From the NCBI GenBank assembly GCA_003990765.1, contig RBNJ01000352.1:1-32382 (forward strand): 32,382 bases of DNA, written 5' to 3'. Positions 1,324 through 32,382 of the stretch are shown one piece after another. A program made the translations under genes and the position numbers. Every line of letters starts with the position of its first letter. Positions within the stretch are counted from its first letter, which is position 1. The notes under the pieces are model-generated. The model was not told the DNA's origin, ran no database searches, and saw nothing but the letters and a program-made list of their open reading frames with translations. The DNA is from Jimgerdemannia flammicorona (Eukaryota).

Positions 1324-1616
1324 AGTAGTGTAGATACAATTATAAATGTGTATGTAAGGGGGGGATTTGGCTTCTCTGAATTTATATACAGGAGTTCCTG
1401 GTCCTCTCAATCAAATGTCAAAGTATAGTGTGACAGGGTGGAGTGGGGTACCAAGATTCAAGACTATTGTCTGGACAGGATACTGATTTTTCACATTTTA
1501 AAACAACAATACACACAAGTTCATGATATTTATGTAACTTTATATTCATACAGAACACACTTCAAATAAGCTATATATGTCATGGAAGTGAGAGAGTAAT
1601 ATCTAACGATTATCAT

Positions 1617-4290
1617 TCACATCTCAAACTTTGTTTGGGATAGATATATTGTTTGTACAACTATATGTACATGATCGTCGATATTAGTTATATTTTGTGA
1701 TTTCAATCAATTCATCGCCTTGTCAATAACTGGTCAACAAAACCTACTTACCATAGACAGCTCCGCTAGCATGTACACAATAGCACAAAGTGTGATGGCA
1801 AAATCATTGTCACCCTTCTCATTGAACTTGTTCGATAATTTTTGAAAGAAATCACTATCTGCACCGTTTGGTATGAGAATGTCAACAAGTTCATCTGATT
1901 TTGTAAATACACTGTTGTGCATCTGGTGTTTGACTAGATTGTATAGCTTCTGAACATCAAGTTATGGGAAAGTCACATTTGGGGATGGAATAAATATTAG
2001 TCTGAACTCTGATAGAACCATTCGTTCATCTTGCATCAATCTGATATAATATGGAACTTCAATGAGTTCAGCATCTGGGTCAGACTTGAAACATATTACA
2101 GGAGTCAGAGTAATTGGGCTGTAATCAATAAATGGCATAATTGCATTGGTGTGGGTGCTGGAATTGTTGCTGTCCACTACAACAAAGTGGTTCGACTTTG
2201 TCGACAATGCACACAATATTGCCATTTGTCCAATTTCATGCTCTGCTGTTGCACTCCTCTTGTAAATGTCCTTGATGGCTAGTGCATAGAGTGTGTTGCT
2301 ATTGACAATGTCCCGTGTAGATACCTGTATAGTTGTTTGTATATCTGTATGCAACTTAATGAGATTTATATAGAACTCTGGGATATGGTGTGGTGGAAGA
2401 ATACAGAACACGGTTTGTTGTGATCATGATTGAACTGTTGGAATTTCAGATGGTGATTGTTGACCTATGTCACTACTGTTGCTACTGCTCCATTCAATGC
2501 TGGTAACTTATGGTTGCATAGTATTGGCGAATACAAGTAATACAGCAGCTATGACACAGCTCTGCTCTTTGATACACTGCAAGTATCCGCACCCAGTGCA
2601 TACAATAAAATCCAACATGTCATATTCATTATGAATTCTGATTCCCAACATGAACACACGAAGCTGTCATTGAGAGTTTATGGTCTTTATAGTATCTGTG
2701 ATAGCATTTTTCTCATCAAAGTGATTGATACTTATCAGAAGTATAACAGTGGTGGATGGTGAATTCTTATTCATAGTGTAGACATCAGTCAATGGACAAG
2801 AAATATCTGTTGTACCACCAGCTCCCATGTCTGCCCTGAGGCTGTTGACAGCCTGCAGTAGATGAATTATGCCATCATCATCACAATTGATATTGGTTTC
2901 AAATAATTTGAAATGTGTTGATATGCCGAACTTAACAATATTGATGGTACATGACTTGGGTAATATTTGCATGGAAAACGCAAGTGCTTCCTATATTTGG
3001 GCTAGTTTGCCATTGAGTATATATGTACAGCAGTCGACAATAAATATGATATCAGTTTGTCGCAGGTCCAATAATATATGGGATATGTTTGTGTACATTA
3101 TACAATGTGTGTTAGTATCAGGGTTGTATTCAGAGATCACAGATTGGTAGTGTTTTCTGTCAACATATATTGTGAAAATAAAATCCTAAAATGTGCATCA
3201 ACATTTAGAGAACTTTGTGACATTCATACACATATGCACATGCTTGATATATAGTTACCATTTGTAGACAACCAATATTGTCAACTAGAATTATAATTGC
3301 TCTTTTATAATCAGTAGTGTCATTAAACACCAACAATGTCTTGTGTGATGGTGATTTCACCTAAACAATTCTGTCTGTCATGGAACATTCAGAATGCACA
3401 GTCAATTTTCCAATCATTGTGCTGTTGGTGTGATTTGCCAAGTGGTGGCATGATATTGTCGTTTTCGGTAAACAAAATAGAACACAATCACTTATTGGTG
3501 ATTCATCCTCAAGCTCCTGTACATATTCAATGTGGACTGTTGTATCATAGTCATCAGAAAATAGTTTTCCAAGCTGTATTTCTATATGTTTGGGGAAGGG
3601 CAACTCAAGTTCTTGAGACAGCTGGACCGGGGATGGAAAGGGGTATACACTTGATATCTTTGCGACTAACTGCGCATATTGACCAATGTCAATAGTGAGA
3701 GTTGCTAGGACTGCCCAATCTGGTACTGCAAACACATATGATGGTGTAATGGTATCAAGAAAGTTGAAGTTGTACTTTTGAGTGATATGGATCCAAGCAA
3801 CTTTGTCAGTAATAGCAATTAGGACATCAATGGCACTATACAAGATTGGTTCAAGGTTGTATATGTTCTGCGGGAACCTGAGCATCCCATTAGATTTGAT
3901 GTGACTACATATCCCCAGACGACATGGGTGTGTGAATGACTCACCTACTGCACCTGAATTGCATTCTTGTAAGATAAAAACAAGCTCACTGTTAGGTTTG
4001 TCATAGATATGCAGACAATCTCTCCGATCATTTTGGGGATCGATTGCCACACAACACTCTGCATTGCATTGGATGATTATGTTGAGGATAGCAACCTTGA
4101 CAACCCCAGGCTCCAGAATGTAGCCATCTCTCAGCCGCACAACAAGTGTCTTGTCATGTTTCCCATACTTCTCTTCGAGGCAATTCAAAAATGGGGCAAC
4201 TTTGTCAGATTTGGCCACAATGCACTCAACAATAGAGCCATTCAACAATCAAATTACAAAGGTGTGACCACCTATGTTTTATTTATTGTA
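1617..4290 (-). pseudogene. VIT-VWA (VWA5A/BCSC-1-like) protein with N-terminal ubiquitin-like domain; one intron at 3186-3258
   Basis: VIT: VAWIHITQKY...SYVFAVPDWAVLATLTIDIG...QLGKL...HIEYVQELE...FCLP, then VKSPSH. A GTAACT...TTTTAG intron joins LQM|DFIFTIYV and explains the frame change. VWA: DIIFIVDCC...EALAFSMQILPKSCTINIVKFG...LRADMGAGGTTDI...VILLIS...RVFMLGI...TGCGY. C-terminus: TLYALA...FVVVD...VIDKAMN*LK. MIDAS motif is degenerate. Confidence 0.85.
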
Positions 4291-4571
4291 GACATCTCCC
4301 CACAACATTTTGTTTATAATCAAATCCCTGACACACTATCTGGTAACTTTACCATTATCTATGTGATATTATAAATTATGCATCTGTTGTCAAATGAGTT
4401 GAATGTGAGATTTTTACAAGACTTGCCTTATTATATATTATGTAATAAGTTTGTTTGTACATCTGTGATGTGCAATCAATCTATATTTTGACATGTTGTG
4501 TAATACTCTAAACATCACGTGCCCTGATTATATATATATATATATAACAGCTACTCACTGCCAACACAACA

Positions 4572-5234
4572 ATGGAGTTCACAACAATATACACAGGATA
4601 TCTAGAGACATATGTCAATACAGTGTATGTTGTCCGGGCATATAAGAACAGACACCTCCCATTTACATCCAGTGTGAGGCCAACAAGAAAAAGTGGTCTA
4701 ATGCCATCACTTGCAAATGGCACAACATATGTATGGAAACAAGCTACAATTGACTGATATTATGACTGATACAACTGGAGTCTGAATCATTGGGCTGGCT
4801 CCTTCTCCCTGTATCATGAAACACATCAAATATATTAGAGCGATAATTGAAGAGTTGAATCGAGGCTCATACTAGGAATAGAGAGAACAAGCTCTCATCA
4901 CCTAATATGCTCACTCTGCAATGAAACATACAAATTTAAAGTGGATGGTCTAATGTGTAAGATGATAACAGTAACTGTCAATAATGAGACATTTGTAATA
5001 TATAACTATTACGAACCAGAGGAAGCAGCTGTCTGTCTACTACTCTGACCAAACAAGGACATAGAACTATCACTATTTCACGTCACCACAATGTAAGGTG
5101 CATGTCAACTATGTCACAAACATCACAAAAAATGTGACAAGCAAGACATTTGTGGATGATATACAAAACACCATCAGACATATGTATACCAAGATACTGA
5201 TGATGTATATTCCTCCACCCTAATTACTGTTTAA
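4572..5234 (+). pseudogene. Gti1/Pac2 (WOPR) domain + C-terminal Zn(II)2Cys6 transcription factor
   Basis: One frame through stops. WOPR: TIYTGYLET...HLP...NGTTYVW...ID*YYD*YNWS...GSFSLYHE...YKFKVDGLMCKMITV...NYY...L*PNKDIEL. Then ACQLCHKHHKKCDKQDICG*YTKHHQTYVY at 5100-5189, a Gal4-type cluster with C>Y and R>H/stop transitions. Confidence 0.8.
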
Positions 5235-5381
5235 ATGTATTTCCTGCTTAAATCCCGAAAACTCACTCTCTCCTATGTCTCTAGGTAACAACTCCAGGGG
5301 TCACGAAGTGACAACCATGACATACCCACAGTCAATGACGTGTAAATTAATATATTTTATAATTCCAATATATAATACATT

Positions 5382-6400
5382 TTACACATCTATATATGCT
5401 GTGGGAATTGTATATGGGAATTGTGAAATGGATCGAACATTGGAAACTACAAATGTTAAATTTTGCCCTAGTAGATAAATATCCACTGTTTTGGTCAGAT
5501 ATGGGAGCGAGTATTGAATATCAAACTCAAATAAAATATTTGAGCTATTTATCGATAATAGATTCCAAACCGCTCCCATCCAACTCATACCATTATTATC
5601 AAATGTCCACACATATATACTGTTGTGATAATAGACGAATTTTACATCCAGAATTGTGGCACATGACAACCTGTGCAACTGGTTTACCACAAATATCTAC
5701 TTACAAGTAGAGTAGTTGTATATACACAATATACCAGAATCGTAAAATGTGATAAGGTGTATGTTGGTGTCAATGGTAATTTTGTCACCCTGCAACAATG
5801 TGTGTTTTAGGTACTATAGCTTATTTGGATCCTGCAGATTGTACAGCTTTGTATGCCCCAACATCTCGCATCAGGCAAAGTGGTGATTGCCTACAGTTAT
5901 CAGTGAAATTGCCTAGAATCCTGTATCCTGTTTATGTAACTGGCTGATATCAATCAGCTGCTTTATCTGATGAGTTGTATCTACTATATATAGCAATATC
6001 TGATCACAGACAATGATGTGATGGCCATCACCAAGCAAAACAAAATCACCAACAATAGTATTTTGGTCACTATCACAAAACAATCGTGGCTGATATGTTT
6101 CATCAGCAGGACAGAATGTGATAATTTTTTTACAGTAACCCAGTAGAACTACTGGGGATTCACCATCAGAAACAGTCAAATTGATGTCATCATATAGTGA
6201 TGACAGCTGGTTCATGTGTTCAAAATCTAATAATATTATGCTTGCAATATGCTTGGTTGTGCAGTAGAACAGTTTCCATACTGATAATATTCCATCACCT
6301 AGTAAAAGAGCTGCTGTGCACCACTTATCACACAACCTTCTACAGATTCTGATAGAGGTTCTGTGTGTTCTGTCAGACTAGTGCTGAACATATATGTACA
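5382..6400 (-). pseudogene. WD40-like/beta-propeller protein, paralog 1
   Basis: ORFs 5913..6335 and 5382..5690 share a frame. GDGILSVWKL resembles a WD repeat end. Aligns with the gene at 24.4-25.6 kb. Start is approximate. Confidence 0.55.
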
Positions 6401-7146
6401 TTGATAATTGGATACAGCAAATTGCGATCTGTTGGTCTACCAATAGTAACAACAGGATAAAGCCCGTCGAGCTATGGACTTGGCATGAGCAATTCTGTTT
6501 TATGCAAATATATATTAGATATATATATATATATATCTTCTTTCTCTCAATTTGTGATAATCACATTCCTTATAGATATTATCACCAGGTAGGTCGCTGT
6601 GTTTAAAATAAAATATCCGTGAATCGTTAATGTATATTGAGAATCCAAACACTACTGAAATGGTTTGTACAGTAACTACAGAATGTCTAATATGTTCTGA
6701 TGATGGTATGAACAAGAGGCCAGTACTGAGGTTATATACATATCTATACACAGTGTATACTTGATGCACTTGAAAACCACAGCCTTGTGACAAAGCCGAA
6801 CCAGACACCTCTATATGTTTGTATGAGTGTGTTAGACCAAATATACAACAGTGTAGTGGTTGTGGATATTTGTATCTTTACTTTTCAGAATGGCTTATAT
6901 TTAGTGTAATATCTATACATATATTACTGTCAATACTGTAGTTATATAACACATTCTGATCAGTGTCATATAATAGTTGAAGTATACCAATATAGACATA
7001 TACACATTTATGGTGTTAGTGTATATATATTTGGGAGTATTTATTGAATGCTGACACAGGATGTAATGTTTGGATATCTACCAAATGTTACAGGTATGTA
7101 TTTTAATATTATTTGGTTTATTCCATATGATGTCAGAAACACAACA

Positions 7147-7572
7147 CTACTACTACTACTATTTGAAGCACAAACTGTTAACTATCAACTATATCATACC
7201 CACATGCTTAGATGACCTTTTGCGATTCAACCCACTTAAAGTATCTGCCAACACTGTGTGATATGTCTCAAGACAGTCATCATACTATTCCTGCTTTAGG
7301 ATTTGGAGAAGATAGCATTTGACGAAGGCATCCATAGTTTCTCTCTCATATTTAGACAAACTGTTGCAATCTTTTGCTGCTCGCGCTAGCAACGATATTG
7401 AAAGCATACTGTGTTTTTTACAATTAGACATCTTTAAATACATGGTGTCTTTACCTGTGGATCCATCTGTAGTAGTAGTAGTCTGTGATAAACCATACCT
7501 GTTTTGTTTGACACTAGCTCTCTCTTTTGCTCTTTATTTGTGGTTTATTTGGGTTGGAGTTCCTGTAGCCAT
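7147..7572 (-). pseudogene. Possible histone-fold (H4-like) protein
   Basis: MATGTPTQINHK*RAKERASVKQNR tail, then SISLLARAAKDCNSLSKYERETMDAFVKCYLLQILK...YHTVLADTL, which loosely parallels H4 AIRRLARRGGVKRIS...LKVFLENVI...RKTVTAMDV. Confidence 0.3.
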
Positions 7573-7791
7573 TGTGTGTGTGGAAAGGAAGGTGTGTGAT
7601 TGGGTTGACTGAGTCAGCTATTCTTAAGCTCCTGAATTTAAACCTCTACCATTGAATCACAATTTGATTGTTGTGTAACTGTTGTCTGCTAATCAGATTT
7701 TGATTGGTATAGTATATAGATGAGCTGCATCCACTTAGCCTGTCAGCTTCTACTCTTTTACAATATATCACAATTCACCCACATCACATTT

Positions 7792-9153
7792 ATGGTTCTG
7801 GCTGTAGTATTAGTGTGGTTTGTTAGTGTGGATGCAATAAGTATACCTGATATAATCTCACATATCATACTGGATGCGATGAGCACACCGAAGCCAGACC
7901 TCATAACTATTTTAGACTCCAAAGACACAACATGTGTGGCTGCAGTGCTGTGCAGCATAGGCACTGATTGCAACCAGATTGCAGATAATAATAACTTTGC
8001 TGCTGCTCTGAGCATAGCTCTCAAAAAATACGATATAGATTATATGAAAATATTGCTCCCAACTAAGTGTTAGGTCAGCCGGGCTGCAGGTATTTGTCTC
8101 GCAGTCTTGCTAGCCCATGTGCCAGCAATATACAACATATTCATTTCCAAACATGCCAATTTGCTTGTATATTGTATGAGTGCATCAATGGGAAATACAG
8201 TGATGCAGCTGATGGATGCATCTACAGCCTTTGCACACCAAACTGAGGAACTGTTTCAGCAGCAGGGCAAGCTTGTGGTATCTACAAAAAATGCAATCGA
8301 TGCTATTGGAATCAATATGGGAAGGGTGCAGGCACAGGTCCAACAAACTAACACCAACATAGTAAAGATCAGCAAGACTGCTGCACAGACCCTGGCAAGC
8401 ATCAATAAAATCAATACAAATATGAAGAAAACCCTCGACCTTAGTGAAAAACTGCCAACTCAAATTGAAGACATTAGCAACCTGATAATGCAGAGTGTTG
8501 TGGAGCAGAGGGCAGCACTAGTCAGTGTTAGTGATAGAATTAGTGGTGTAGAAACATAGCTGGGGGAATTCAAGATGAACATGGCAATAAAGTTCACAGA
8601 TTTCAACCTGAAGGTGGATGACTTGCAGGACAGGATTGTCAATGTCCTATCAGATATTATAGTTCAACTGGATTCAGTTGAGAAATAGGCACAAATACTG
8701 CTGGCCATTTTGGATGGTGCTGAAAAAGCTGCCACAACAATGCACATGATATACAATGGCATGATAGCTGTTGTTGATAGATATTTTGGGCTACTTTGTG
8801 GATTCTCAGATGTGACAGGGTTCATATTTATCATTGCAGTTCTGCTACCATGTGTCTGGTAGCAACATATTCCAGGTACAATCAATAAAATGGTGTGTGT
8901 TTTGGTGCTTATTTCATAGAAAGCTATTAGACAGGGTGATGTACAACTATTTGTACCATATGAGATTGCTGCAACTATGTCGGGATTGTGTGTCCTGAAT
9001 GTGCTATGGATGGTGCATAAATGATAACAATAACAACAGTATAATGTCAGGTTGATGGAGTGTCAAGAGAATGCATATGATGAATTTTGTGAATTGTATT
9101 ATGACGAATATGATGATACACTTGATATTGTAGTTAAATCAGATATATTTTAG
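7792..9153 (+). pseudogene. GEX1/KAR5/Brambleberry-like nuclear membrane fusion protein (~450 aa, intronless)
   Basis: One frame. Signal peptide MVLAVVLVWFVSVDA. Cys-rich domain TCVAAVLCSIGTDCNQI...LSIALKK(Y)...PTKC*VSRAAGICL...IYNIF...VYC. About 200 aa of heptad-rich coiled coil (8190-8760). Two to three hydrophobic segments (8790-9015). Then TGA TAA CAA TAA CAA (decayed poly-CGA Arg run) and an acidic tail. Confidence 0.65.
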
Positions 9154-9247
9154 CAGTAATAAATATTAAACTGGCTTTGTTGCAATTATCTATATTTTTT
9201 TGGACATTTTACAAATTTGATGATTGTGTTACATAAAGGTTGACTAT

Positions 9248-9272
9248 GTGATGTCCTTGATGATGACATTAC
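9248..9272 (+). repeat. Short intergenic motif, copy 1 (GTGATGTCCTTGATGATGACATTAC)
   Basis: Near-identical to 17086-17110. Ends 14 bp before the kinase ATG. Confidence 0.7.
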
Positions 9273-9286
9273 TAATTACACCACTT

Positions 9287-10818
9287 ATGTTAAATGATAA
9301 AGCACAAGCCAAAACCACTTCAATACAAATTCTTGCAATGGACTGATATACTGCTCTTTTGAAAAAATGGCAAAAAAGCATCAAACTTAGTGAAAAGCTC
9401 AGAGAAGGGCTTGTATCTGTCATATATTCAAGTATATCTGTCAGTCCCTTCTGTATACATTTTACTTGTTAGATTCTGATATTGCACGCAAATAGTTAAA
9501 CCCATGACTTCCATTATACCTGACCATACTGTAGACTTGAAGCAATTTGCACTAAAATTAGTAGGTTCAATATATTGATCATGTATGATGTATATTGTTT
9601 TCGTATCTTACATGTGCTTCACTTATGATATTTATTAAAAAGTCCAGGGATTCTGAATCATTAGAGATGGTATTAAGAGAGAAGGATGTATATAGTATTT
9701 GAGATGATGCCAAAGATTAGTGGGCTGAAATGAAATATTCATTGTTAGAAGCAATAATTACATATTTATGTTGATTGTCATAATACAGGAAATGCTCCTC
9801 TACCACATATACTCAAATTCTATGGTTCATATCAGAAAGGTGGTTTGGGGATAATTGTAATAGAACAAATGAAGATAGATTTGAATGGTTACCTTGAGAA
9901 AGAAAATGTGATTAATGAAGACAAATTCTTAGATATCACAGTAAAGTTGGTAAATATATATTAAAAATGATGTAATCTTATTGTATAATAAGGTATGAAT
10001 TTTTCATCTACTTTGCAATATGATGTCTTTTTTCATTTCTAGATCGACTGTATTCGGAGTTTTCATTATTATAGATATGTTCATAAAGACTTAAAGGTAA
10101 TCACTGGGATAGCACAAAATACATTAACTGAATGAGTCACCATTCCTATAATGCTTTATATTTTCATAATTTACAAAACTATCTCAGCCAGCCAACATTG
10201 GCATCTGACAGATATCTGAGGGGTTCGAATTCTGCATTTTCAACATGACTACATGCTACCATACCAATATGAAAAATTTCACAAACCACAGCCAGTGTCC
10301 ATGGGATATCTTCATCGAAATGCCAATGTTTGCAAGTGTGGCTGCTGTGAATAAACTTGGTAGGTTACAAATATTTTTAGTATATACATAAAGTAGAATT
10401 TTGCTGTTTTCCTTACAGGAGATTTTGTATTCAAATCCGTTTATTAGAACACTTCTATCTTGATGATCTTGAGAGTCTTGAGTATATCTTGCTCTATATA
10501 GTCTTTGAGCAACACCTGCCATGGGAGAATTCTAAGGATTGAGAAGTATTACAACAGAAGAAGCAGATTATGATGGTGTTGGAAAATGCAAAGAATAATA
10601 AGCAGTATCAAAGGACTCTCTTAGAAATTGTCTTCAGGTACTTTAGCTACCTCTCCACCAAGCAATGGGCATGGAAACCCAAAGATGCCAATTTTGAAGA
10701 GCTCAAGGCTTCTTTAAGTGGTTCCAAAACTCCGGCTGCTGTCTCATAAGCAGACCTCACAATCATCAAGCAGCCTAAGCCCCAAAAATATACATACAAT
10801 CTGCAATCTAAAAAATAG
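9287..10818 (+). pseudogene. CK1/VRK-like Ser/Thr protein kinase with spliceosomal introns
   Basis: KLREGLVSVIY (Gly loop), ILKFYGSY...IIVIEQM, YVHKDLK|PANI, IEMPMFAS (from GTPxFAS), DDLESLEYILLY...LPW. GT-AG introns at 9950-10042, 10097-10187 and 10360-10447, plus less well defined ones between 9430 and 9790. Confidence 0.85.
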
Positions 10819-11199
10819 CTAGTTATACTTCAAAGATTATATGTATGTGGAGTGCAATTGTCTACAGAATAATTTGGACAATATATTCTCAAATAAACAT
10901 CCCATTTCCGTATATACTAGCTATGTCACTTAATTCAGTGTAACCATATGTATGGAGCATTGTAATCCAGATACTTAGTAGTTATAACAATTAATATAAA
11001 GATATATTTAATTCAAATGAGGTGAGCACTTGTAATGATAGGTCACTCCAATATAACGATGTCAGTGTAATATTCTATAGAAGCAGTTCTGATGAATATA
11101 TAGGATGAAATATGAGGTGACCACCCTTTTAAATAATAATGCCAAATTCGATAGTTATGATTTTAGGCAGTTGTATCCTTTTCCATACACATACAAGCC

Positions 11200-13857
11200 A
11201 TGCATCAGCACAACCCTAGACACTTTTCATATGACTCCTCTGATAGACATCCTATCATGTTTATGAATGAAAAGGGTAACAAGCTCCAAGTTCAGGTTAT
11301 CAATGATAGCATCATACATGTTTTATACAATGTACCTCACCAACTATGGCTACTAAGCTATACCCTCATCGATGACAGAGCACTCCTGATATTCACATTG
11401 GAGATTGACGATGAGAACAAGAAGCTTGTCATTAAAACTAGAATCCTGTGTATTGTTGTCAACTTCAAAAAGGACCTATATATCGCCTGGTATGCCCAGA
11501 GCCACCCTGATACCCCCCGGCAGGAAGATCTACTGAACCACATATATCCCTCGGATCTGGCCACAGGTGCTGTTTGGCACTATATGAAATAGCTTGAAGG
11601 TGACATATACTATGGTCTTGGGGAGCACACCAGCGAATTGAACCTCAAAGGCCATCAGTTCAGACTGGAGCATCTGGATTGTATGAGTTATGATATAGAG
11701 ATCTTGGACCCCCTGTACAAGTTTTGTCCATTCTATCTGATGCTGTCAAAGGGCACAAGCTTGGCCCATGGCATTTTTTATAATAATATGTCAAGGATGA
11801 CAGTGGATTTAAGCAATGAGAACAATGCTGTGAGTATATGCGTCACTGACTCTAGTTTTGTAATATGTGGTAGTTTTCTTGCTCACTCATTTTATGATTG
11901 TTGCTTCAAGCTGTGGGGGCCCTATCACTACTACTATGCCGAGGTAGGGCCTCTTGATTACTACATCTTTTTCAGCCCTTCTGTCCAAGACGTTATTGAA
12001 GGCTTTACCTCATTAATGGGTATGCTGGATCACCTCCCTCCCCGCTACTCATTTGGCTACCTTGCCTCCTCCATGGGTTATGCTGAAGCCTCTAATGCAC
12101 AAATACTTCTTGAGGGGGTCCCCGATCTCTGCCGCCAGCATAATATTCTCTGTGATAGACTCCACCTTTCATCCAGCTACACTGTCGACAAAGACACCAA
12201 GCAGCGCTACGTCTTCATCTGGAATGAGAAATACTTCTCAAACCCCAAAGACCTGATAGTCAAGCTTAAAAATACTGGTATCCACATCTTTGCCAACATC
12301 AAGCCCTGGCTGCTCGAGATCCATCCATACTACCAGAGTCTGAAGGATGTACATGGCCTCATCTGGAATGAAGAGGATGACATCCCCGGCAAAGTAATGC
12401 AGTGGAGCGGCAGTGCTGGCGAGTCTGCCAGCTATGCCTACATTGATTTCACAAGTGAGAATGGGTTCAACTGGTGGAAAGAAAATGTCAAGACAAAGCT
12501 CCTCATGTATGGCCTGGAGGGGTTGTGGAATGATAACAATGAGTTCACCATGCCTGATGATATATATTCATTTTCCAATGAAGTTAAGTCTACCATGAAC
12601 CTATACTGCCCGTTGCCCTCATACAGGACTAATTCAGCTGTAGTCGGCATGCCATTGCAGACCCTGCTGATGGCACAGGCATTGTACAAGACCATGTATG
12701 AATATGTACCGAGCCAGTGACCCTTTGTGATCACAAGATCTGCGACTCTATTTATTCACAAATATGTCATGCAGACATAGAGTGAAGATAATTTCATGGC
12801 ATAGAAGTTGGTCAAGTTCAATATTCTAATAGGCATATCTGCTGGGTTGTCCATATTCTCTGGTATGTATGGCCACAACGTGGGTGGTTTTGTGGGGCCT
12901 AAGCTGGAGCCAGAACTGTTCATACATTGGGTGCAGAACAGAATCTTCAATCCTAGGTTTAGCATTCATTTGTGGAATTCAGATCATACTATCATAGAGC
13001 CATGGATGGTAAGATCATTGCACTGAGCTATTAAATGATATACTTAGCATTAGAAGCTCTTGTCAAACATTCTCACCATTTATAATTATTCACAATGATA
13101 TACATAGTATCTCTCCATCCTTCCGACCATCTGTTCCTCCATCTATTTCCACTACCACCTCATCCCTCACATATATTCTCTTTATATCGAGTTCCACCAC
13201 ATGGGTCACCCAATCCTTCACCCACTCTTTTACCATTTCCAAAATGACCTGGTGACATACAACCAATCCTTTGACTTCATGCTTGGTTCCACTATACTCA
13301 TTGCCTCTATTTATGAGCCCGCCGCCACCACATGCAAGGTTTATCTGCCCACAGACTCTAACTGGTACCACTTTCAGACTGGCTGCCATCATATAGGCAG
13401 ACAGGAGGTGGAGCTCCCAGCCCCACTCGAGGATGCACACTCTCTGTTCCTGATGCTCAAAGGTGTACTCCTCCTGCTTGGCAAGGTGATGCAGCATATA
13501 GGAGAGCAAAGAGATGATAAGCAGGTTGTACAAATGTACCCACTGCTACTCATAGCCAAATATGTCAAAAAGTGATTTGAAGTGACAATGGTAGAAAATG
13601 ATGGGATATCCATGAACTATATGGAAAAAGGTGAGTATACAGAGCTAATAGTGTGGATTGTATGTGATTTCGATGAGATCAAGGTGGGTGTATATATCGT
13701 TCATGCACAGTATAAGCCCAAGTATGACATCATATGGTTTGTGGTTGCAGTGGAGGGTGAGACCAGGAAGGTGGTCAGAGGTAAAGACAGTTTGACTAAA
13801 GTGGATACTGTGGGGAGGACGATGGTGGGTGTTCCTGTGATATTTGCACCTTACTAA
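11200..13857 (+). pseudogene. Glycoside hydrolase family 31 (alpha-glucosidase-like, WNDNNE type)
   Basis: YYGLGEH, DPLYKFCPFY, PPRYSFGYLAS, ANIKPW, YIDFTS...WW, nucleophile WNDNNEF, PFVITRS, QT*SEDN, GHNVGGF.GP, EPWM|Y. In-frame introns at 11830-11910 (GTGAGT...GCTCAC...AAG) and 13009-13107 (GTAAGA...TAG). At least five in-frame stops. The 5' end is uncertain. Confidence 0.93.
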
Positions 13858-14337
13858 GGTTCATACAAACATTCACTTAATATGTACCACAATTTACTAA
13901 ACATTATATTGACATGTTTTGGTTGTTATAACCTGACAGAAACAATCTCATCCCCCCCCCCCAAAAAAAAAAAACCAAATGTGCAATACTGGTATTAAGA
14001 ATTATATAATATATATGTGATAGGTGGTAATATGTATTATATGACTTAGTGTATAGTTATCCATGCTTATATTAAAATAAACTACCTATCTGTGATTTAA
14101 TATACAGTTTTGTCAACCATGTACTATAATATCAAGTTGTAATCTTCTATCATACACATAAATGTATTAAACTGAAATCCAATTCTGAAGAATTATAGAT
14201 GTTTCGTTTTGTTGTACATATTCATGATGCATTTCAGACTGATTGTAAATGGGAAACACAATGACGCAATTATGTGACATAGTTTACATGATAAATTAAT
14301 ACCAAATTGTAATATTTATACTATTACATTGTAAAGC

Positions 14338-15348
14338 ATGCCCAAAGTACAAGTAAGAAAGTCATATAACCTGCAATCTAACAAGCTGCTGCCACCACCA
14401 CTACCACCAATACCAATACTAGCAGACAAATATATTCCTGTCAAATTTTCGATAAATGAAAATGGCAAAGTCTGTTTCATTCTGGTGAATACACCTAAAT
14501 TCATCCAAATGATCCACAAAATGATAGAGGAAGTCAACACAAAACATGTTGATCTTCGAACTCAAATACATCAATATCTACTAAATGTGTTTTCATCTGA
14601 CGAAGGTGCCAATCTTAACCTGAGACCACTTTGTCATGAGTTCAGAAAAACACCAATTTTCAAATTGAAAGTTGTAATCGATCAACTAGTTCGCGACAAG
14701 ATATTTTTCTGAGATAGACAATAACAGTATTCATAGACTGAGCAAACTATTGCATCGACATCAGCACATATTACTGATTTCGAAGGATTGGAACTTCTCA
14801 TACTAGATTTTTTGAGGGTTCAATTGGATGAGCACGACATTAGTGAAACAGGTGTAGACACGCTACATATAGAATTTGATGTGAAGAGTTATGTAACCTT
14901 GACATTACAACAACCGTATCACTAAGGCCTGATCCAAGATATTGAAATTGATGAAAATGAGAAACCCCAAATTCATTTGTCTAAAGAATTAGTTGAAAGA
15001 ATAGATGTTGAGCTGGCAGAGCCATTGATACCAGATGAAATAAAAATGCAATGGTTGTACATAACTACTATATATGATAACACATCGTTTACACCATTTC
15101 ACCCATACAAAATATCGATAGTAGAAGACATTATTTTAAAGATTAATTGTGAATTACACAGGTTCATACAAGATCACTTGATATGTACTATAATATTTAC
15201 CAACCATCATATTGATATGTTTGTTTGTTGTAATCTGACAGAAATATATATAACAACCTCATCACAAATGGTTATTTGAAATGCATCCCTGACAAACGAA
15301 ATGTGCAACATTAGTACTATGGTCATACTAAATATATCTAGTTCTTAA
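14338..15348 (+). pseudogene. Winged-helix domain protein (RPA32C/STN1C-like pattern)
   Basis: ORFs 14338 and 14977 share a frame. LRTQIHQYLLNVFSSDEGANLNLRPLCHEF...KLKVVIDQLVRDKIFF fits a wHTH pattern. A second possible wHTH follows (LELLILDFLR...TLQQPYH*GLI). Confidence 0.4.
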
Positions 15349-15698
15349 TGACTATAATTATCTGCAATCAGCTTATGTTAAAATAAACAAATTTGTCCAA
15401 ACACCATTATGTCAACTAACTTATTACTATGTATGTCACATGTTTCATGTGATTCTTTCATTGTGATCACAATGCAGTAGTAGCATCTTGTTTGGAGTAT
15501 ATTTCATTGAACATAATGTATCATGTCACTATTATAAATAATATAAGTCTAGTTGTGCCAACAGTCATCCAAAACATCCAGCAATGTCGCAACTAGACCT
15601 CAATATGTTATACGTATCTCAACATCTTATCCATACTATGTTTGAACAAATTCTTCATACAAATTATTGCTATTCTAAACCTAAATCTATATATATAG

Positions 15699-17075
15699 AT
15701 GACATTGGAAGAAATCTTTACTGCGATCAGACAATACAACCTACTACATATAAATGGTACTATGCAGGGTGCTATTCTCACCGCATGTTCTATAGCTCAT
15801 CATAATAGTATACCAGATCTTTTTGATGTCCAAGTACACCAAAGTGGATATATCCTCTTATCTATTGCCAAACATATTCTCTCTGACAATATTGTAGCAT
15901 TCTCATTGACAATAGATGACAGCTATAGATTATATATGATAAGTCCTAAGTATATAGCCAGTAATATTACATACATTTCATCTAATACAAACTCCTTGAT
16001 CAGCATTGTAACTTCTTTGACCTCATCTGTTGATTCAATAACTTACATGACAGCATCACATTTTGCAATCACCCAGCAAACTGGCTATACATACCCACAC
16101 CTCCATTCTGCGGGTCATACAAAGATTCTTCGAAATCAATATAAAGATGTATTTTGTGTTACTGATCTAAAAAGACCAATAGCAATGACTACATTCAGAC
16201 AGCTATTCATGTTGGTGGATGGACATGGTAGTCGCAAGTGTGTGTAGTTCTTTGTCAATATGATCTCTAGTGCAATTGCAGATCTGTGTAGTGGATACAA
16301 TTTGGAGGAGTTGGGTGATGCTACCATACAGCAATCGATAGCACATGAGATCAAGGAGCTAGTTAGGAGGCTTGATGACGAGTATTTGCATGGATTGCAC
16401 AATAGCAATAGGTGTACACTTATGCTGGCTATATTTCTGAGTAACACGTGGCTCATGCAGGCCAACGTGGGTGACTCATGCACCATCCTCATATCTATAT
16501 TAGATGGTGTCTACAATCTTGATATTGACTTCGCCTTACAAGATCATAAACCATACCTCGGATGTATTGCCCAAAATATACTAGCGAATGGTGGTGAATT
16601 CATGGATGTTATATAGGATTGGGTCATCAATGTCAATTCTAAACATCTCTAGAGTGGTACCAATACAATAGCCATACTCAGGAATGCATATATCAGAGTA
16701 TTGAAGAATGAGATGTCAATAAATGTGGGGAGATTATGTGGCGATGCTGTGTTCAAGCAAAATCCGACTGCAAGGATCATATTGTGTGAACCAGATATCA
16801 TGTTTATTGACATTAGTAGATAACAGCAGCAACAGTAATGACAGTAGTTCCTGCTCATGAGTAGTGATGGTCTGATGGATCACCTAGGATATGGACTTGT
16901 TGTTGACATACAGAATAAATGTATCACAATGGCTGTCAGAGATCTTGTTGAGGCTAGTGAGGAGTGTGGTTGTATTGTTAAATATCTTTATAATCACGAG
17001 GGTGATCCCAACTTCTTCTTGTCTATAGTTCAAGCATATGATAATTGCACTGTTATATTAGTTGAGATAGTATAG
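15699..17075 (+). pseudogene. PP2C (PPM) protein phosphatase with N-terminal extension
   Basis: One frame: LVDGHGS, ANVGDS, QDHKP, NGG, GRLCGD, CEPDI, SSDGLMD, YDNCTVILV. No introns seen. Confidence 0.9.
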
Positions 17076-17085
17076 CATATTTACT

Positions 17086-17110
17086 GTGATGTCCCTGATG
17101 ATGATGTCAC
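17086..17110 (+). repeat. Short intergenic motif, copy 2 (GTGATGTCCCTGATGATGATGTCAC)
   Basis: Matches 9248-9272 with transition-only differences. Lies between the PP2C stop and the next ATG (17160). Confidence 0.7.
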
Positions 17111-17159
17111 AAGATAAGATATAACGAATGCATTTTCATTGAATAAATCTTCCAAAACA

Positions 17160-17868
17160 ATGACTAACCAATGTGGATGCTACTATTTTGAAAGTGGCTA
17201 TGAACTATATCTAATCTCCAAACCGGTCTCTCCAGGTGTCATTCGTATCTGTGCTAGAGCCAAAGGTGAGAGTTGTGTATTATACTGTTGTCTAGCTCTT
17301 TATTTATTTCAATACTCCAGGTGTAAAACCCTACAGCTATCTTGAGGTGAATACTGCAGTATAACTTCTGAATAAATGACTTGGACATGGCTGGTCCTGC
17401 AAATACAAAGTAGATAATAGGATTGAGGTATTTGTTATGGATGTCAATCTGTAAATTCATGTGGCCACAAAATACTAATCCAAATATAGACATTCTACGA
17501 ATCCATGAGATTGTGGGAGATTTATGTCAAAGTGACTGCCAAGTTCAAATACATCATACCAAGTAACCAAACAATAAAACGCGAAGTATGTATTTAGCTT
17601 ACAAGAGCTTCAACTACAACCACTGCTCCATCTAACACAATCCCAGAAATGTGGTGGATTTATACAATCCTTGCAGGCAAGAGGCACAGTGAGAAAAAAT
17701 GCTAGAAAATTGGCTAACTCTGATGTGCTAAAACGAATTGCTGCCACATTCGGCATTACCATTGTGGGTGAATCTGTCGATAATGGTAACTGTGTTGTTG
17801 GTGATACATTATATATAGCGGAGTTCCCATGCTTACACCTTATTAATTTAAAACATAATAGATGCTGA
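17160..17868 (+). pseudogene. Unknown decayed gene with probable intron 17266-17320
   Basis: A GTGAGA...CTCCAG intron joins the frame of the 17139 ORF to the frame of the 17671 ORF. Confidence 0.35.
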
Positions 17869-18214
17869 TCCCACCCCCCACCTCTCCTCATTCAAGTCAA
17901 GGTATTTGTCTCTTTCTTTATATATAGCCATTTCATTTATATCCCATTATTGAGCTATACATATATTATTTTAGGTTTGAACCATATATTGGTAGTGTTT
18001 AATGATACAGTACATGCAGTAAGTATTTATTGTACAAAATTAATAGAGTCATATGGATATTAATTTTCCCACCCCTTTCAAAATAGAATCCTGATTCAGT
18101 TGATTATATAAATTATGACCACCAATAAATAATATGTTTGGTCATATGATCACAAATAAAGAAGACTTATAAACAGCTTATAATTAAACAGCTTTATACA
18201 TTATTCACTACAAT

Positions 18215-19880
18215 ATGAATACACTTGCAGAGCAATTAGTTATGTCATATACGGCTCTTAAACACAATACAACAAACCCTATGTTTAGCTCAGACATTCT
18301 CACTAATCTCATCACTAGTAAGAATGATATATGGATGCTATTGTCAAATGTTTTTTAGATGATAGAGGAAATGTATCAAATTCACACTTTTACTGCTGAT
18401 GGTAACATGACTTTTGGATACAGTGGGGACAAACATTCGATAACTGTCATCATAAATAGAATGGATATATATCAGATAACAACTAATGTTATATCACCAG
18501 CTACTAAAGCAATTTACAAATCTATAATATAGGAGCCATATGTATATGATCCCCCATTCTCAAGAACCTCTGATAGATATGATGATGACCTATTATATAT
18601 GACAATGGCTGAAGTCATGCCACAACCTGATGATGACATGGATATCGATTTGGTTGAGGTTCTTTCAGCTAGTGAATTATCGCTACATGGGGTTCTTCTA
18701 GCCAGTGAATTATCACTATATGGGGTTCTTCCAGCCGATGGATCACTACTACATGGGGTTCATCCAGCCAGTGAATTATTGCTACATGGGGTTCATCCAG
18801 CCAGTGAATTATCGCTATACAGGGTTCATCCAGCTAGTGAATTATTACTATATGGGGTTCGTCCAGCCAGTGAATTATTGCTACATAGGGTTTGTCCAGC
18901 TAGTGAATTATTACTACACAGGATTCGTCCAGCCAGTGAATTATTGCTACATGGGGTTCATCCAGCCAGTGAATTATTGCTACATGGGGTTTGTCCAGCC
19001 AGTGAATTATCACTATACAGAATTCTTCCAGCCGATAGATCACCACTACATGAGGTTCTCCCAGCCAATAGATCACCGCTACATGAGGTTCTCCCAGTCG
19101 ATGGATCACTGCTATATGAGGTTCTCCCAGCCAATGGATCACCGCTACATGAGATTCTTCCAGCCAATGGATCACTGCTACATGAGGTTTCACAAATCAG
19201 AGCAATATTCAGACAAGAGCTCAGAGTCTGGAGAGAAACTGCAACTCATGCTACCAAAAGAGTAGATGACCCAACTAGAAAATACCATAGACAATGATAT
19301 GTTAAAGATAGCCAGAGACAAATCAGTCACAATTTGAATGAGATATCTTCAGAATCTGAGACAGAAAGTGAGACAACAGCAGAGGAGGAGGATGAATGTT
19401 TGCAGATGCCACAACTTTTATATGCTATATATAAACATGCCAGGTTTATATATCTAGACCAATCATTAGCCACCAGAATGCGGTCAGAGAAGTTTATCAA
19501 ATTGCTCATAGTGCAATCTGCAAGGTCTATTTTAGACAATGTGGCGAATTGGTATAATCAGTTAGTGGTCAAATATATTTCAGGTAGTATAGGGTTATGC
19601 CTTTGTAGTATGAGCATCTGTGTCAAATATTTACTAGATCTGACTGATCTGAATAATTATCAATTGGTGTCATGGAGGGTAGTGTCCAATCAGCTCAATG
19701 CAAAGTACAGCCAATATAATGCCAGTGAGCTTGGTAAGTGGATTAGGTGTGGGTGGCAGTATCTCATCTTGGCTAAGCTCTTCAATAGTGTATTTGTTGT
19801 GGCATCATTGTAGAGAGCCACTAGTATATCAAGAATGATGAATTCAGAATTTAGAGAACTGGTGACATACCTATGATTGA
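18215..19880 (+). pseudogene. Unknown protein with internal 11-aa tandem repeat and acidic patch
   Basis: ATG 18215 and ORFs 18599 and 19334 are all in one frame, separated by TAG/TGA stops. Confidence 0.6.
18656..19183 (+). repeat. Coding minisatellite, 16 x 33 bp
   Basis: Unit approx. GGGGTTCATCCAGCCAGTGAATTATTGCTACAT; 528 bp = 16 units. Two subtypes (PASELxL, PAxGSPL). Confidence 0.97.
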
Positions 19881-20586
19881 AGGACTGTATTGTAGGTATT
19901 TTTTTTTATAGTCATTTGGACTTTGCCATTTATTACCAGTCTAATGTTAAATATACATTCTTCCTCCCACTACCTGATTCCCATAGGCAATCCAAGCAAA
20001 GACCACCTTCCCCCCCAACTGTGTTGTAGGTATAATATATGATGCATATAGTGGGGATGATGTGTGGTCGATAGTAAAGAATTGTGTGAGTGGGGAGGAT
20101 ATTGATGCAACTAGTAGTGTTGTCACACAAGTGTTGGAAGAAAACACACTTGAATGCCTACTAGTGATATATAATAATAATAAATAATAAAGTTTTAAAT
20201 ATCTCTGTGGAAAACTGTGAATGTTTTACAACAATTATCTCCAAATCTATACATTACTTATATTGGACCACAATCGATACAAAAAGTAACAGAGCTGTCA
20301 AGTCATATAAGTATTTATAAAAACTATCCTCAAAAATCTATTGGCAATATATCCATAGACTAGAGTTATAAAATATATCATATTATAAAATGATCTTTTC
20401 TGCAACAAGATCCTTTTTTATGGACACAGCATGCTACACATTTTGCACTCCTGTAATCAGCTTTGAAAGAAACTGAAAGTTTCACTGAATTGTCAAACAC
20501 TCAACTCCAAATAATTTTACTGGAACACACCCAAGAATATGAAGTAGTGTTAAGAACTGCAGTTGTGGGGCAGACTCGCCCACACA

Positions 20587-22527: not shown

Positions 22528-22893
22528 GCCATTTAACTTGTGCAGGTTACAATTGGTTCAATAGTTTATTCATTTGATAAAATAATTTGATACTATTATA
22601 AAATAGTACCACATAGACCTGTAGCCACAGCAGCTACAGCTTATAACAATAGTAGCATTGTCGCATTTGTTGACAATGTGTGTATCATTTCATTCACGGT
22701 TAAATACACTAAGTCATTAGAGTTAATATGCTCAGGTTGTGCCATAGGGGTGTAGTGGAGACTGAGTGGTGTGAATTTATATATATACCATTAGTCTACA
22801 TGACATACTGAGTAATATTATATAAAAATAAATAAGATGACATTACCTTTGATTATACACATATTAGATTCCAAACATGTTTAGTAGTGGTCA

Positions 22894-22948
22894 GGGAAAG
22901 TGCATTCACATGGATGGGATTATCCTGTCTATGTGAATGCACTTTCCC
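22894..22948. repeat. Long palindrome, copy A
   Basis: GGGAAAGTGCATTCACAT GGATGGGAT T ATCCTGTCT ATGTGAATGCACTTTCCC. Confidence 0.97.
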
Positions 22949-23041
22949 CAATAATGGCATCATCATTAATTTGAAACATGGTCACAACTTGTAAAGAAAT
23001 ATAAACCATGGTAAACTGTCTTAAAAAGTTACAAGATGGCA

Positions 23042-23491
23042 ATGCAATAGAGATGGGCAATTATTACCAGGGTGGATTCAATAACAATCCTTCAACCAAC
23101 AGATATATTGATGGGATCAAAATTAGGAGAACATCTCTGCAATCATCTTGCCACAGAACTATTGGAGTTTCAATGACTGGATGATTTTCTGCAGGTATTT
23201 AAATACAAACTCAGATGGCGAATGTCTGGTGGGAATAAGAAACCTGGTGTTATTGTTATGCTAGATAAGAAGGAGTATTGGAAATTCATCTGTCACAGTA
23301 TGCAAGTTGTCACTGATCTTGCAGACCTGAAAGCGATATTTCCAGACCACTGTATATGTATAATCCTGCAGGGTTTGACTAATTCTGTAAGAATAAACCA
23401 ACAGATGGTTAACAAGTATTATGCCCATGAAATCATTATCGAGCAGTCAAGAAATTCTCCAATAACAATTGCACAGATTGTCTGGTATTAG
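23042..23491 (+). pseudogene. EME1/Mms4-like (ERCC4-type) fragment
   Basis: KLGEHL...LRWRM...GVIVMLDKKEYWKFI...LADLKAIFPDHCICIILQGL...NKYY resembles the inactive ERCC4 domain of EME1. Confidence 0.4.
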
Positions 23492-23592
23492 GCAATGTAG
23501 TCCAGCAATTATATATACTATGTAATAAATGATGTTTATATGTCACAGCCTCATCATATCCCAACCACGCACACCATGATACACTTTGCACA

Positions 23593-24171: not shown

Positions 24172-24389
24172 TACATATATATATTTGTATAGATCTTGTG
24201 CACTGTCTGGCTGTATGTGTGATTTAACTATCCTACTATATGCATTGCAAAACTTGTAAATCACATTTAATACACAAACTCGAGACACTGTTATGTGTCA
24301 TAACATCTCTCTTATAATGGCAACTGGAATTCGCAAATTTCGAAAATAGTAAAGGTGATATATTTTATAAAAATACAATATTTATTTGC

Positions 24390-25640: not shown

Positions 25641-25677
25641 GGTTTCTAGCAAAGTATATAACTAGATAAATAAGACA

Positions 25678-26252: not shown

Positions 26253-26484
26253 GGTAGTTGGTTGGCATTACAAAAATGTGTATTCGACTGGCTATTTATG
26301 CCATGACATATTATAACAATGATGGTCCAAAACACTCACATGATAGCATCAGGGACATCATATGAATTATTTTGCTACAGATTCAACTATGACAATTTAC
26401 ACCAATTCCAACAATATCCAATTCTGCTGAACCCTGGGTAATATTATATGATGTTTTGAGAGATGTTTAATTGTGTATTAGGGA

Positions 26485-26546: not shown

Positions 26547-26558
26547 GTGTGACGTTGT

Positions 26559-30424: not shown

Positions 30425-32130
30425 ATGGTGAATAATAAGTGACCACAACAATTTGATGATAGTGAAAACAGACGTATACGACACAACTCCAACCAACTGC
30501 CACAACAAACATCGGAACCACTGCTGCTATCATACCACCTGCATTGGATGTGCCTACAGGCTCCGATCATAAACTGTGAGAGCAATGAACTCATGTTTCA
30601 GCTGATGGATGTTCATATAAAGTTTCGCAATAGCGAGGAGATTGTGATTATAATTGGAACAACTATTGAAAAGTATAGTGTTATATGTTGGGTGCATGGA
30701 TTTAGACTATAGTTTTACATCTACATGCCCAACACTGTCCAACAGGACAATCTACCATTGTTGGTAGTGTGGCTGCAACAGTATGCAAAAGTGTCTGTAT
30801 ACAACTGTAGTATTGTTGATAGCAGAGACATATACAACTACACAGAGTCAGACTTGGAACTATTCATTAGGTTCACCACTACAACAGACGCTGCTAGACA
30901 ATGACTGGTGAATTTTATATAGAATCGAACAGTCTTCAGTCTGCCCAGTTGCACTATTGTGCATGATGACAAATCGTATAAAAGTGATGTGAGTCTGGAT
31001 CTGCGATTCATGGTCAACCACATGATAACTGGGGTCAGATGGGTGCGAATCTCCACTGGAAATTACATGTTGTATATCTTGCGGACATCACACTGTTAGT
31101 ATGAGGTCGAAACGGACATCAATGCAATCCAGAGTGTGCCCTATAACTCCTGTGACGTGGGTTTGTGCATCGTACCCTTGCAGGTACTGAGCTTCGATAT
31201 CGAGTATCACAGTTGCAAGAGCATTTTTCCGGAGCCCAAACATGACCCCATCATACAGATTGGCTGTACTGTGGCTGTGTTGGATGTGGCAGACCCACCC
31301 AAATACATTGTGTTTGTGCTGGGGGAGTGCACCATGCCACTCGATAATTGCAAAGTGTGGGCACACACCTCCGAGAAGGCACTCCTGCTTGACTGGTGCT
31401 GGTTTGTGGTGTATGAGGTCAATCCAGACATGCTGACAGACTACATGATTGCCAAGTTTGACATTCCATATCTGATTAACTGCGTACATGCATTGGGTAT
31501 TGAGTGTACATTCATACAGTTGGGCCAGATTGTTGACAGGGAAACCACAATCAATCAGAAAGTTACAAAGACCAAGGCATATGGTATCAACAACACAAAC
31601 AAAATTGACATCGCAGGCTGTCCACTGTATAATATCTATGACGTGGTCCATCTCGATTACAAGCTCCCTGGTAGAAACAAACTCAATAATGTCTGCAAAC
31701 ATTACCTTAATGGTGAAATAAAGGTAGACCTATACTACAGTATGATCATGCTACTGCACGATGACAGTAACAATGACTGACACAAACTAGCCGAGTACTG
31801 CATACAGGACATGATACTACTATTACTGCTGATGGTGCAATTTGCGAGTATGACTAAGTATATTGAGCTGGCATACATTACAGGCATGCCATTTGCATAT
31901 TTGTTACTACATAGCCAGCAGATCCAGACCATGTCACAATTCTATCGAAAGACACATGAACTGAACTATCTCATTCTTGTATCTGACCCTGTCAAGGGCA
32001 TTATCGCCAATGGGCCACAGTACCAGGGTGCGAAGGTACTCAACGTGACCCCTGGCTACTACTAAGTACCAATCTGCATGCTTGACTACAGCTTGCTATA
32101 CCTGACCATCATGATCAACAATAATCTATA
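30425..32130 (+). pseudogene. polB: Family B DNA polymerase, Pol delta-like, intronless, interrupted after motif A
   Basis: One frame: LMFQLMDV, SVICWVHGFRL*FYI, LRFMVNHMITGVRW, ExoI LSFDIE...FPEPKHDPIIQIG, ExoII DYMIAKFDIPYL, ExoIII LAEYCIQD, ELAYITG...SQQIQTMSQ, YQGAKVL...GYY*VPICMLDYSLLYLTIMINNNL (motif A, from DxxSLYPSIM). Confidence 0.95.
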
Positions 32131-32382
32131 CTCGCAGACCCCGACATGCAAGTCTCTCCACTACAATTCACGTTACACACACTTTTCAACACACTTTCGA
32201 AGCATTTATTGGCGAGAGATACTAAGGCAATATCAACTAGCAAGCAAGCCGACACGCGTACTGGGTCGGGTGGACCTGGGGCCTTCGACTGGCAGACTGT
32301 CGGGAGAGGGTATGGATTGGGGATGGGATCTTTCGGTGGCTCGAGTGGGCAGGGCGGCTCAGGTGGTGGAGGTAGCACTGGT
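32131..32382 (+). mobile_element. Probable younger insertion or rearrangement junction inside polB
   Basis: Polymerase similarity stops after NNL. The sequence becomes GC-rich with many intact CpGs. A Gly-rich frame STSKQADTRTGSGGPGAFDWQTVGRGYGLGMGSFGGSSGQGGSGGGG runs off the window end. Confidence 0.55.

Follow-up and report, generated by a model that had tools for sequence, protein, structure and literature searches.

A decayed gene for a two-domain WOPR and Zn2Cys6 regulator in a CpG-depleted stretch of Jimgerdemannia flammicorona DNA

The 32,382-nucleotide contig RBNJ01000352.1 of Jimgerdemannia flammicorona (assembly GCA_003990765.1; "the window" below is this whole stretch) carries at positions 4572–5234, on the plus strand, a non-functional, mutation-riddled pseudogene of a gene for a regulator that joined a WOPR domain to a C-terminal Zn2Cys6 zinc cluster. 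With seven internal stops, two of six zinc ligands gone and 19 of 44 strongly conserved WOPR columns left (columns conserved in ≥80% of 108 relatives), this copy regulates nothing. The best explanation, and one held here with good confidence, is that it is a unitary single-exon pseudogene of a lineage-restricted fungal two-domain regulator gene, drifting by C>T/G>A decay; the parent gene was probably one of the Endogonaceae (Mucoromycotina). An intact protein of the same architecture, called P0002 here, is already deposited in public databases, uncharacterized, and the value of the find lies in that protein rather than in the dead locus.

The decayed gene

Translated in a single plus-strand frame, the locus reads MEFTTIYTGYLE... 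through the WOPR segments to GACQLCHKHHKKCDKQDICG-stop-YTKHHQTYVY. This translation, together with the gapless alignment to P0002 described below, confirms what an initial annotation had proposed from the letters of the DNA, namely that a WOPR domain continues in frame into a Zn2Cys6-like stretch. The parts of the pseudogene are as follows.

4572..5234, plus strand: whole pseudogene, 220 codons and a terminal TAA; colinear with the intact 220-residue P0002; seven internal stops
4587..4841, plus strand: first WOPR segment (WOPRa), residues 6–90; placed by the best Pfam stretch (7–91), by alignment to the Wor1 and YHR177W chains and by conserved columns
4920..5051, plus strand: second WOPR segment (WOPRb), about residues 117–160; contains YKFKxDGLM...YNYY...LLxP; conserved columns 120–160, and strands 128–136 and 139–147 in the model of the homolog
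5100..5195, plus strand: decayed Zn2Cys6 cluster, residues 177–208; placed by translation, Pfam and comparison with P0002

The frame is interrupted by TGA at 4755, 4767, 4848, 5046 and 5157, TAG at 4836 and TAA at 5094, that is, by seven internal stops in 220 codons versus a mean of 12.8 per 220 codons in the plus-strand frames of the window. A stop-to-stop list of open reading frames (ORFs) holds nothing of it but two fragments, at 4548–4757 (69 amino acids) and 4851–5048 (65 amino acids), and thus misses the gene, as had been pointed out.

With the stops entered as X, Pfam recognizes the Gti1_Pac2 family (PF09729) in two stretches at 38.3 bits, above its threshold of 23.6, while Zn_clus (PF00172) reaches 7.6 bits (E 5.5) against a gathering score of 21. 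From the window sequence by itself the WOPR part can be recognized, but the zinc cluster, being so far under its threshold, cannot. Four of the six zinc ligands are kept (Cys 178, 181, 188 and 194), positions 197 and 204 have become Tyr, codon 196 is TGA, and the six-cysteine spacing typical of the class (CX2CX6CX5-12CX2CX6-8C) is no longer present. At the site of the WOPR signature RWTDG the copy reads stop-YYD-stop. A search of solved structures with the stop-containing copy returned S100-A3, at the chance level of E 0.72, as its sole match. No sequencing run, of RNA or otherwise, was listed as containing positions 4300–5500.

An intact homolog

Among 5.8 billion protein clusters, the X-containing translation found exactly one match, P0002 (E 8e-102, 75% identity, 100% coverage), a 220-amino-acid hypothetical protein of J. 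flammicorona whose UniRef name is Zn(2)-C6 fungal-type domain-containing protein. BLASTP aligns residues 1–220 of the window copy with residues 1–220 of P0002 without a gap, the first Met and the last residue before the stop being identical in place. P0002 scores 58.9 bits for Gti1_Pac2 and 28.1 bits for Zn_clus (residues 177–208), both above threshold, which bears out the chimeric protein of about 220 amino acids, WOPR followed by a C-terminal Zn2Cys6 cluster, that had been predicted by repairing the frame. That both domains would score holds in part: Gti1_Pac2 does so in both copies and Zn_clus in P0002, with the window copy falling short for Zn_clus.

All six cysteines are present in P0002, spaced CX2CX6CX5CX2CX6C, with a basic stretch between the second and the third, and the cluster matches the solved zinc-cluster domains of LAC9, PUT3, Pho7 and GAL4 at E 0.03–0.5. 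It lies at residues 178–204 of 220, leaving 16 residues to the C-terminus and a short, acidic tail (EDTDD). Opposite the TAA at 5094 (codon 175) P0002 has Arg and its frame continues into the cluster; the possibility that an intact homolog would stop at this point, which would have told against the fusion, can be set aside. Five of six residues restored in the initial annotation (R182, R196, C197, R200 and C204) are those of P0002, and the sixth, Arg at position 184, is not: P0002 has His there too. The linker between the two domains is also conserved, being LLLRPNKDVDLSLFHVTT in P0002 and LLL-stop-PNKDIELSLFHVTT in the window copy.

Could the fusion nevertheless be an artifact, either a chance pattern of cysteines or a chimeric gene model in the databases? 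The window copy on its own has just the 7.6 bits for Zn_clus mentioned above, and P0002 comes from the automatic annotation of a 7.2-kb contig and is unreviewed. Two independent loci, however, have in common a 220-codon frame, a start, a stop position and a conserved linker, which argues against a chimeric model, and P0002 has the canonical spacing, a Zn_clus score above threshold and matches to solved zinc-cluster domains. The chance of an artifact appears very slight; as judged by comparison of the two sequences, a WOPR and C-terminal Zn2Cys6 fusion of about 220 amino acids is real.

Rarity of the combination

A phmmer search with P0002 against 1.84 billion representatives gave 505 proteins at E ≤1e-3. 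P0002 itself is the only one below 1e-30, and the next match, at 1.1e-13, covers the WOPR part only. When the best 109 of the 505 WOPR relatives were scanned with Pfam, Gti1_Pac2 was found in every one and Zn_clus in a single protein, P0002; similarly, a regular expression for Zn2Cys6 picked out one of 151 proteins among the matches listed, again P0002. The 355 weaker of the 505 lie outside the Zn_clus and motif counts. These figures agree with the earlier remark that a second DNA-binding domain is unusual in WOPR proteins.

P0002 forms a one-member cluster and is found on one 7.2-kb contig, and the named WOPR proteins nearest to it are ordinary ascomycete proteins of the Pac2-like kind. A scan of metagenome contigs with P0002 produced 69 pattern matches, none of them confirmed by tblastn. 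The ESM Atlas search with P0002 produced no usable feature match and no listed cluster with both families; its structure matches are Gti1/Pac2 clusters (template modeling [TM] scores of 0.63 and 0.60 on the query), with zinc-cluster families at 0.28–0.32. In the literature, a search on WOPR, Zn2Cys6 and Mucoromycota yielded no title or abstract describing such a fusion, and neither the text nor four supplements of a study of dual-specificity factors in fungi (PMC5415576) mention Gti1 or WOPR; the fusion is "not described" so far as these searches only are concerned. By these counts, the WOPR and Zn2Cys6 combination is rare.

The WOPR fold and its divergence

An AlphaFold2 model of P0002, made from the 109-sequence alignment, has a mean pLDDT (predicted local distance difference test) of 75.5, with most ten-residue blocks of 1–90 and 121–170 at 80–97 and strands at 51–56, 73–84, 128–136 and 139–147. 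A Foldseek search of the PDB with this model returned YHR177W (4m8b, E 4e-9) and the Wor1-DNA complexes 4qtk and 4qtj (E 3e-8 to 7e-8), with target TM scores of 0.66–0.74; outside these three entries there was nothing better than E 0.09. On these matches to YHR177W and Wor1, the fold of P0002 is that of a WOPR domain. Its two segments of about 80 and 50 amino acids form the interdigitated beta-sheet in the model of intact P0002, and the window copy has the corresponding two Pfam stretches.

The signature residues are another matter. P0002 keeps 26 of the 44 strongly conserved WOPR columns and has changed 18, and in place of the RWTDG motif, which is 93–100% conserved in the 108 relatives, it has QYYDR. 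The consensus residues S72, L79, K129 and H142 are replaced in both P0002 and the window copy. Of the conserved RR pair, one Arg is apparently retained (R36, by alignment) and the other is Val. Two papers (PMC4567300, PMC13729134) describe the WOPR domain as an interdigitated beta-sheet whose key DNA contact is a loop that carries an arginine and lies in the minor groove.

Directional decay and CpG depletion

The window copy and P0002 differ at 56 of 220 residues, and the differences have a direction: 39 can be reached from the P0002 residue by C>T or G>A alone, five by the reverse changes alone and 12 in neither way (binomial p 1.4e-7). At the seven stops P0002 has Arg five times, Trp once and Gln once. 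Sorted by context, 40 inferred changes comprise 19 at CpG, 17 at CpA/TpG, three at CpC and one at ApG. The initial annotation had held that every restoration is a single transition; the changes are indeed mostly C>T or G>A, and the exception is the TAA at 5094, which needs two if Arg was ancestral at codon 175.

The same tendency is visible in base composition. The 32-kb window has a GC content of 0.37 and a CpG observed/expected ratio of 0.27, which lies between 0.10 and 0.51 in every 1-kb bin, coding and non-coding alike, and TpG and CpA are in excess. Repeat-induced point mutation (RIP) leaves a high TpA/ApT and a low (CpA+TpG)/(ApC+GpT), the classical thresholds being 0.89 and 1.03. The window has 0.76 and 1.47, no 1-kb bin qualifies for RIP on both indices, and neither does the window as a whole: the dinucleotide values are those left when CpG is lost to TpG and CpA, and do not have the signature of classical RIP.

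Neighboring genes

Read-through frames were scanned with Pfam in 3-kb pieces, positions 1–1571, 8237–11166 and 13840–29599 being covered by ORFs of at least 110 amino acids only. Three neighbors could be recognized.

2574..4248, minus strand: upstream neighbor, probable host-type gene with VIT and VWA domains; all leads below family thresholds
11200..13839, plus strand: GH31 alpha-glucosidase-like pseudogene with two apparent introns; colinear with Mucoromycotina alpha-glucosidases
30974..32143, plus strand: fragment of a cellular-type family-B DNA polymerase gene; covers the exonuclease domain and the first part of the polymerase domain and extends towards the end of the window

The best relatives of the GH31 pseudogene over the largest exon, in Bifiguratus (53%) and Umbelopsis (50%), are both from Mucoromycotina. 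It has five in-frame stops within the aligned blocks; stops fall at positions that are R or W in all of 12 homologs. The Asp of GHDVGGF in the Umbelopsis homolog is replaced by Asn. Among 303 columns in which at least 10 of these 12 homologs agree, it differs at 76; 51 of the differences can be explained by C>T/G>A only and one by the reverse only (p 2e-14). Fifty-three changes could be assigned a context, 28 of them at CpG and 13 at CpA/TpG.

The polymerase fragment scores 110.6 bits for the exonuclease family PF03104 and 38 bits for PF00136, has three in-frame stops in 390 codons, and presumably resembles the catalytic subunit of a polymerase of the delta type. The presence of a decayed copy suggests that a duplicated host segment is degenerating here. 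Counting the WOPR and zinc-cluster pseudogene, at least three host-type genes of this CpG-depleted region have been inactivated, and two of them, that pseudogene and the GH31 gene, have the same mutational bias.

Immediately upstream, a 295-amino-acid ORF at 3364–4248 (minus strand) is open and would be the N-terminal part of the VIT/VWA-like gene; the VWA part, at about 2574–3053 on the same strand, is in a read-through frame that holds stops. The leads are VIT matches for the ORF itself, in the Atlas at 0.89 and, below threshold, in Pfam (E 0.051), and, just downstream of it on the same strand, the Pfam families VWA_3 (E 5e-5) and VWA (E 8e-5), neither of which reaches its gathering score. 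The ORF had no protein homolog at E ≤1e-3 among proteins of 162–517 amino acids. Weak as they are, these leads come from independent tools and fit a probable VIT-VWA gene of host type.

On the downstream side, none of the six frames of 5235–8236 has a Pfam match. Two adjacent ORFs of 117 and 161 amino acids, with one stop between them, occupy 7720–8556 (plus strand); they are coiled-coil-like, with weak noise only. At E ≤0.01 they match no Pfam family, and relaxing the limit to E ≤10 brings up no family connected with karyogamy. These are the ORFs that the initial annotation had taken for a karyogamy-like gene near the pseudogene, a reading that the Pfam matches do not support.

How the region may have decayed

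When CpG depletion throughout the window is taken with the decay of two unrelated genes in one direction and the stops in a third, the picture points to erosion of a methylation-linked or RIP-like kind in a member of the Mucoromycotina. According to a kingdom-wide screen (preprint 10.1101/2025.01.10.632494), RIP-like signatures are unique to ascomycetes, and such erosion in Mucoromycotina would be notable for that reason. In the proposed sequence of events, the parent gene would have encoded a divergent WOPR domain (residues 1 to about 170), a short linker, the Zn2Cys6 cluster at 178–204 and 16 further residues. In the genome of an Endogonaceae-like member of the Mucoromycotina, a host segment that was duplicated, degenerating or redundant in some other way would have been silenced, and probably cytosine-methylated, after which the window copy would have drifted without selection under deamination-driven GC-to-AT pressure.

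A small chance may be given to the alternative that the decay was the work of a true RIP-type defense directed at the duplicated segment, rather than of passive deamination of methylated CpG followed by drift. The extreme C>T/G>A bias in two unrelated genes (39 vs 5 and 51 vs 1) would be expected of such a defense, as would the inactivation of at least three genes together within 32 kb, and a sizeable share of the changes is at CpA/TpG (17 of 40 and 13 of 53). The locus also resembles pseudogenes degraded by RIP, or by methylation-associated CpG decay, in its direction of change, its stops derived from CGA and TGG and its AT enrichment. It differs from RIP-degraded pseudogenes in that CpG, not CpA, is the commonest context, in that the genes affected are of host type and not recognizable transposons, and in that the classical indices are not reached: a (CpA+TpG)/(ApC+GpT) of 1.47 is the opposite of the depletion that RIP produces, and CpG observed/expected is 0.27 throughout the window. 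The reported restriction of RIP-like signatures to ascomycetes counts against RIP as well.

A second alternative is that the locus works in spite of its stops, these being read through, recoded or repaired in the RNA, for example by A-to-I editing or an alternative code. Some of the G>A changes could be masked by A-to-I editing (TAT at Cys, CAC at Arg and TAG at Trp positions), but C>T changes cannot be reversed in this way. Three different stop codons would have to be accommodated, five of the seven being TGA where P0002 has Arg or Gln and one being TAA. Missense changes also remove conserved residues in both domains, and since other genes in the window have stops at invariant Trp or Arg positions, the explanation would have to cover them all. 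It is hardly credible.

The initial annotation regarded the gene as a regulator of either element genes or host development, and a related possibility is that it was cargo or regulator of a mobile element, the window holding one decayed copy of a multi-copy, element-borne family. In its favor, the region is AT-rich and crowded with coding sequence in decay, three copies of a palindrome some 75 nt long lie at 22.9, 26.6 and 30.3 kb, and P0002 is an orphan without close family, as is often the case with captured or element-borne genes. On the other hand, tblastn finds one copy of the gene only within the window, no direct or inverted repeats flank it, six-frame Pfam scans of 1572–4573 and 5235–8236 detected no transposase, integrase, reverse transcriptase or tyrosine recombinase, and the recognizable neighbors (VIT/VWA-like, GH31, cellular-type family-B polymerase) are of host type. 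The protein search, too, gave one relative and no family. Within the window, then, neither terminal repeats or element genes nor multiple copies mark the locus as mobile-element cargo, and this origin is given less of a chance than RIP. As to a regulatory role of either kind, the window copy is dead.

Several points weigh against the preferred explanation, that of a host-type gene drifting by C>T/G>A decay. Mutation contexts were deduced by comparing proteins, and codon structure biases them, in that Arg codons impose CpG and Cys codons TpG. P0002 was compared at the protein level, and the window copy may be either a paralog or a dead ortholog of it. CpG depletion is the one ground for proposing methylation. 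The zinc-cluster part of the P0002 model is of low confidence (pLDDT 40–56). Finally, P0002 lacks R62, W63, T64, G66, S72, L79, K129, H142 and other residues conserved in 83–100% of the 108 relatives, so that P0002, too, may have a WOPR part that is non-canonical or in decay.

Possible function of P0002 and relation to known regulators

P0002 resembles the WOPR, or Gti1/Pac2, factors (Wor1, Ryp1, Sge1, Mit1/YHR177W, Pac2, OsaA) in having both WOPRa and WOPRb with a linker, PF09729 above threshold and the predicted fold. It differs from them in size (only 220 amino acids versus 159–1053 for the listed relatives), in the change of RWTDG to QYYDR with 18 of 44 conserved columns altered, and in the added second DNA-binding domain, found in none of the 108 other scanned relatives; the window copy differs further in being a pseudogene.

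Gal4-type Zn2Cys6 clusters are usually N-terminal, followed by a linker, a coiled-coil dimerization element and usually a middle-homology region. With this class (Gal4, Put3, Lac9, Ppr1, Pho7) P0002 has in common the six-cysteine spacing, the basic stretch and a PF00172 score of 28.1 bits, but its cluster is at the extreme C-terminus, and neither a coiled-coil dimerization element nor a middle-homology region was detected (Pfam gave neither PF04082 Fungal_trans nor PF11951 Fungal_trans_2), so that the full Gal4-type architecture is not there. In the window copy, two of the six Cys have become Tyr and a stop lies inside the cluster.

A third comparison is with the dual-specificity fungal transcription factors (C2H2 plus zinc cluster, Cmr1-type), which likewise have two classes of DNA-binding domain on one polypeptide. 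In Shelest (2017; PMC5415576), one of the two domains is said often to decay in paralogs, and combinations were counted only if present in at least five genomes; the WOPR and Zn2Cys6 pairing, unlike those, is known from one protein and the window pseudogene.

If P0002 is expressed, the zinc cluster could provide its DNA binding, and, given the eroded WOPR signature, may be the main contact. Having neither coiled coil nor middle-homology region, the protein would probably be monomeric. A WOPR fold without RWTDG could serve as a second, altered DNA contact or as a surface for protein contacts. With no long activation region, P0002 might act as a small binder of composite sites, or might compete with WOPR or zinc-cluster factors of the canonical kind. 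The WOPR-type DNA site is TTAAAGTTT-like. A bolder proposal, on balance unlikely, is that P0002 is a working, Endogonaceae-specific minimal transcription factor, a Zn2Cys6 cluster grafted on the C-terminus of a WOPR domain that lacks RWTDG (which would be the sole such pairing seen among the 1.84 billion representatives), reading a composite site made up of a CGG-type half-site beside a WOPR-type site; the window copy would then be a duplicate, inactivated with at least two neighboring host genes by a directional C-to-T process in Mucoromycotina, outside the ascomycetes.

WOPR and zinc-cluster factors are both fungus-specific classes of regulator, and each has been studied separately. A protein that has little beyond a single domain from each class would offer a compact system in which to see two unrelated DNA-binding folds combined on one site, and would also tell whether a WOPR fold without RWTDG still binds DNA. 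As it stands, the architecture is a modest curiosity, and nothing at the window locus is functional. The regional pattern is perhaps the more useful lead, bearing as it does on how the very large genomes of Endogonaceae (96–240 Mb, according to PMC7928374) silence and erode duplicated DNA.

Repeats elsewhere in the window

Two repeats lie well away from the pseudogene. The palindromic element of about 75 nt is found at 22888–22966, 26558–26636 and 30256–30334, in copies about 3.7 kb apart and 71–82% identical, with arms GGGGAAAGTGCATTCACATGGA...TCCATGTGAATGCACTTTCCCC; it may be a hairpin-like or MITE-like repeat (miniature inverted-repeat transposable element), or the boundary of a 3.7-kb tandem unit. 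A 33-nt tandem unit is repeated 16 times at 18658–19189 (plus strand; 82% matches), also with a 99-nt period, inside long open frames at 18533–19297, and may represent either a protein with 11-residue repeats or a minisatellite.

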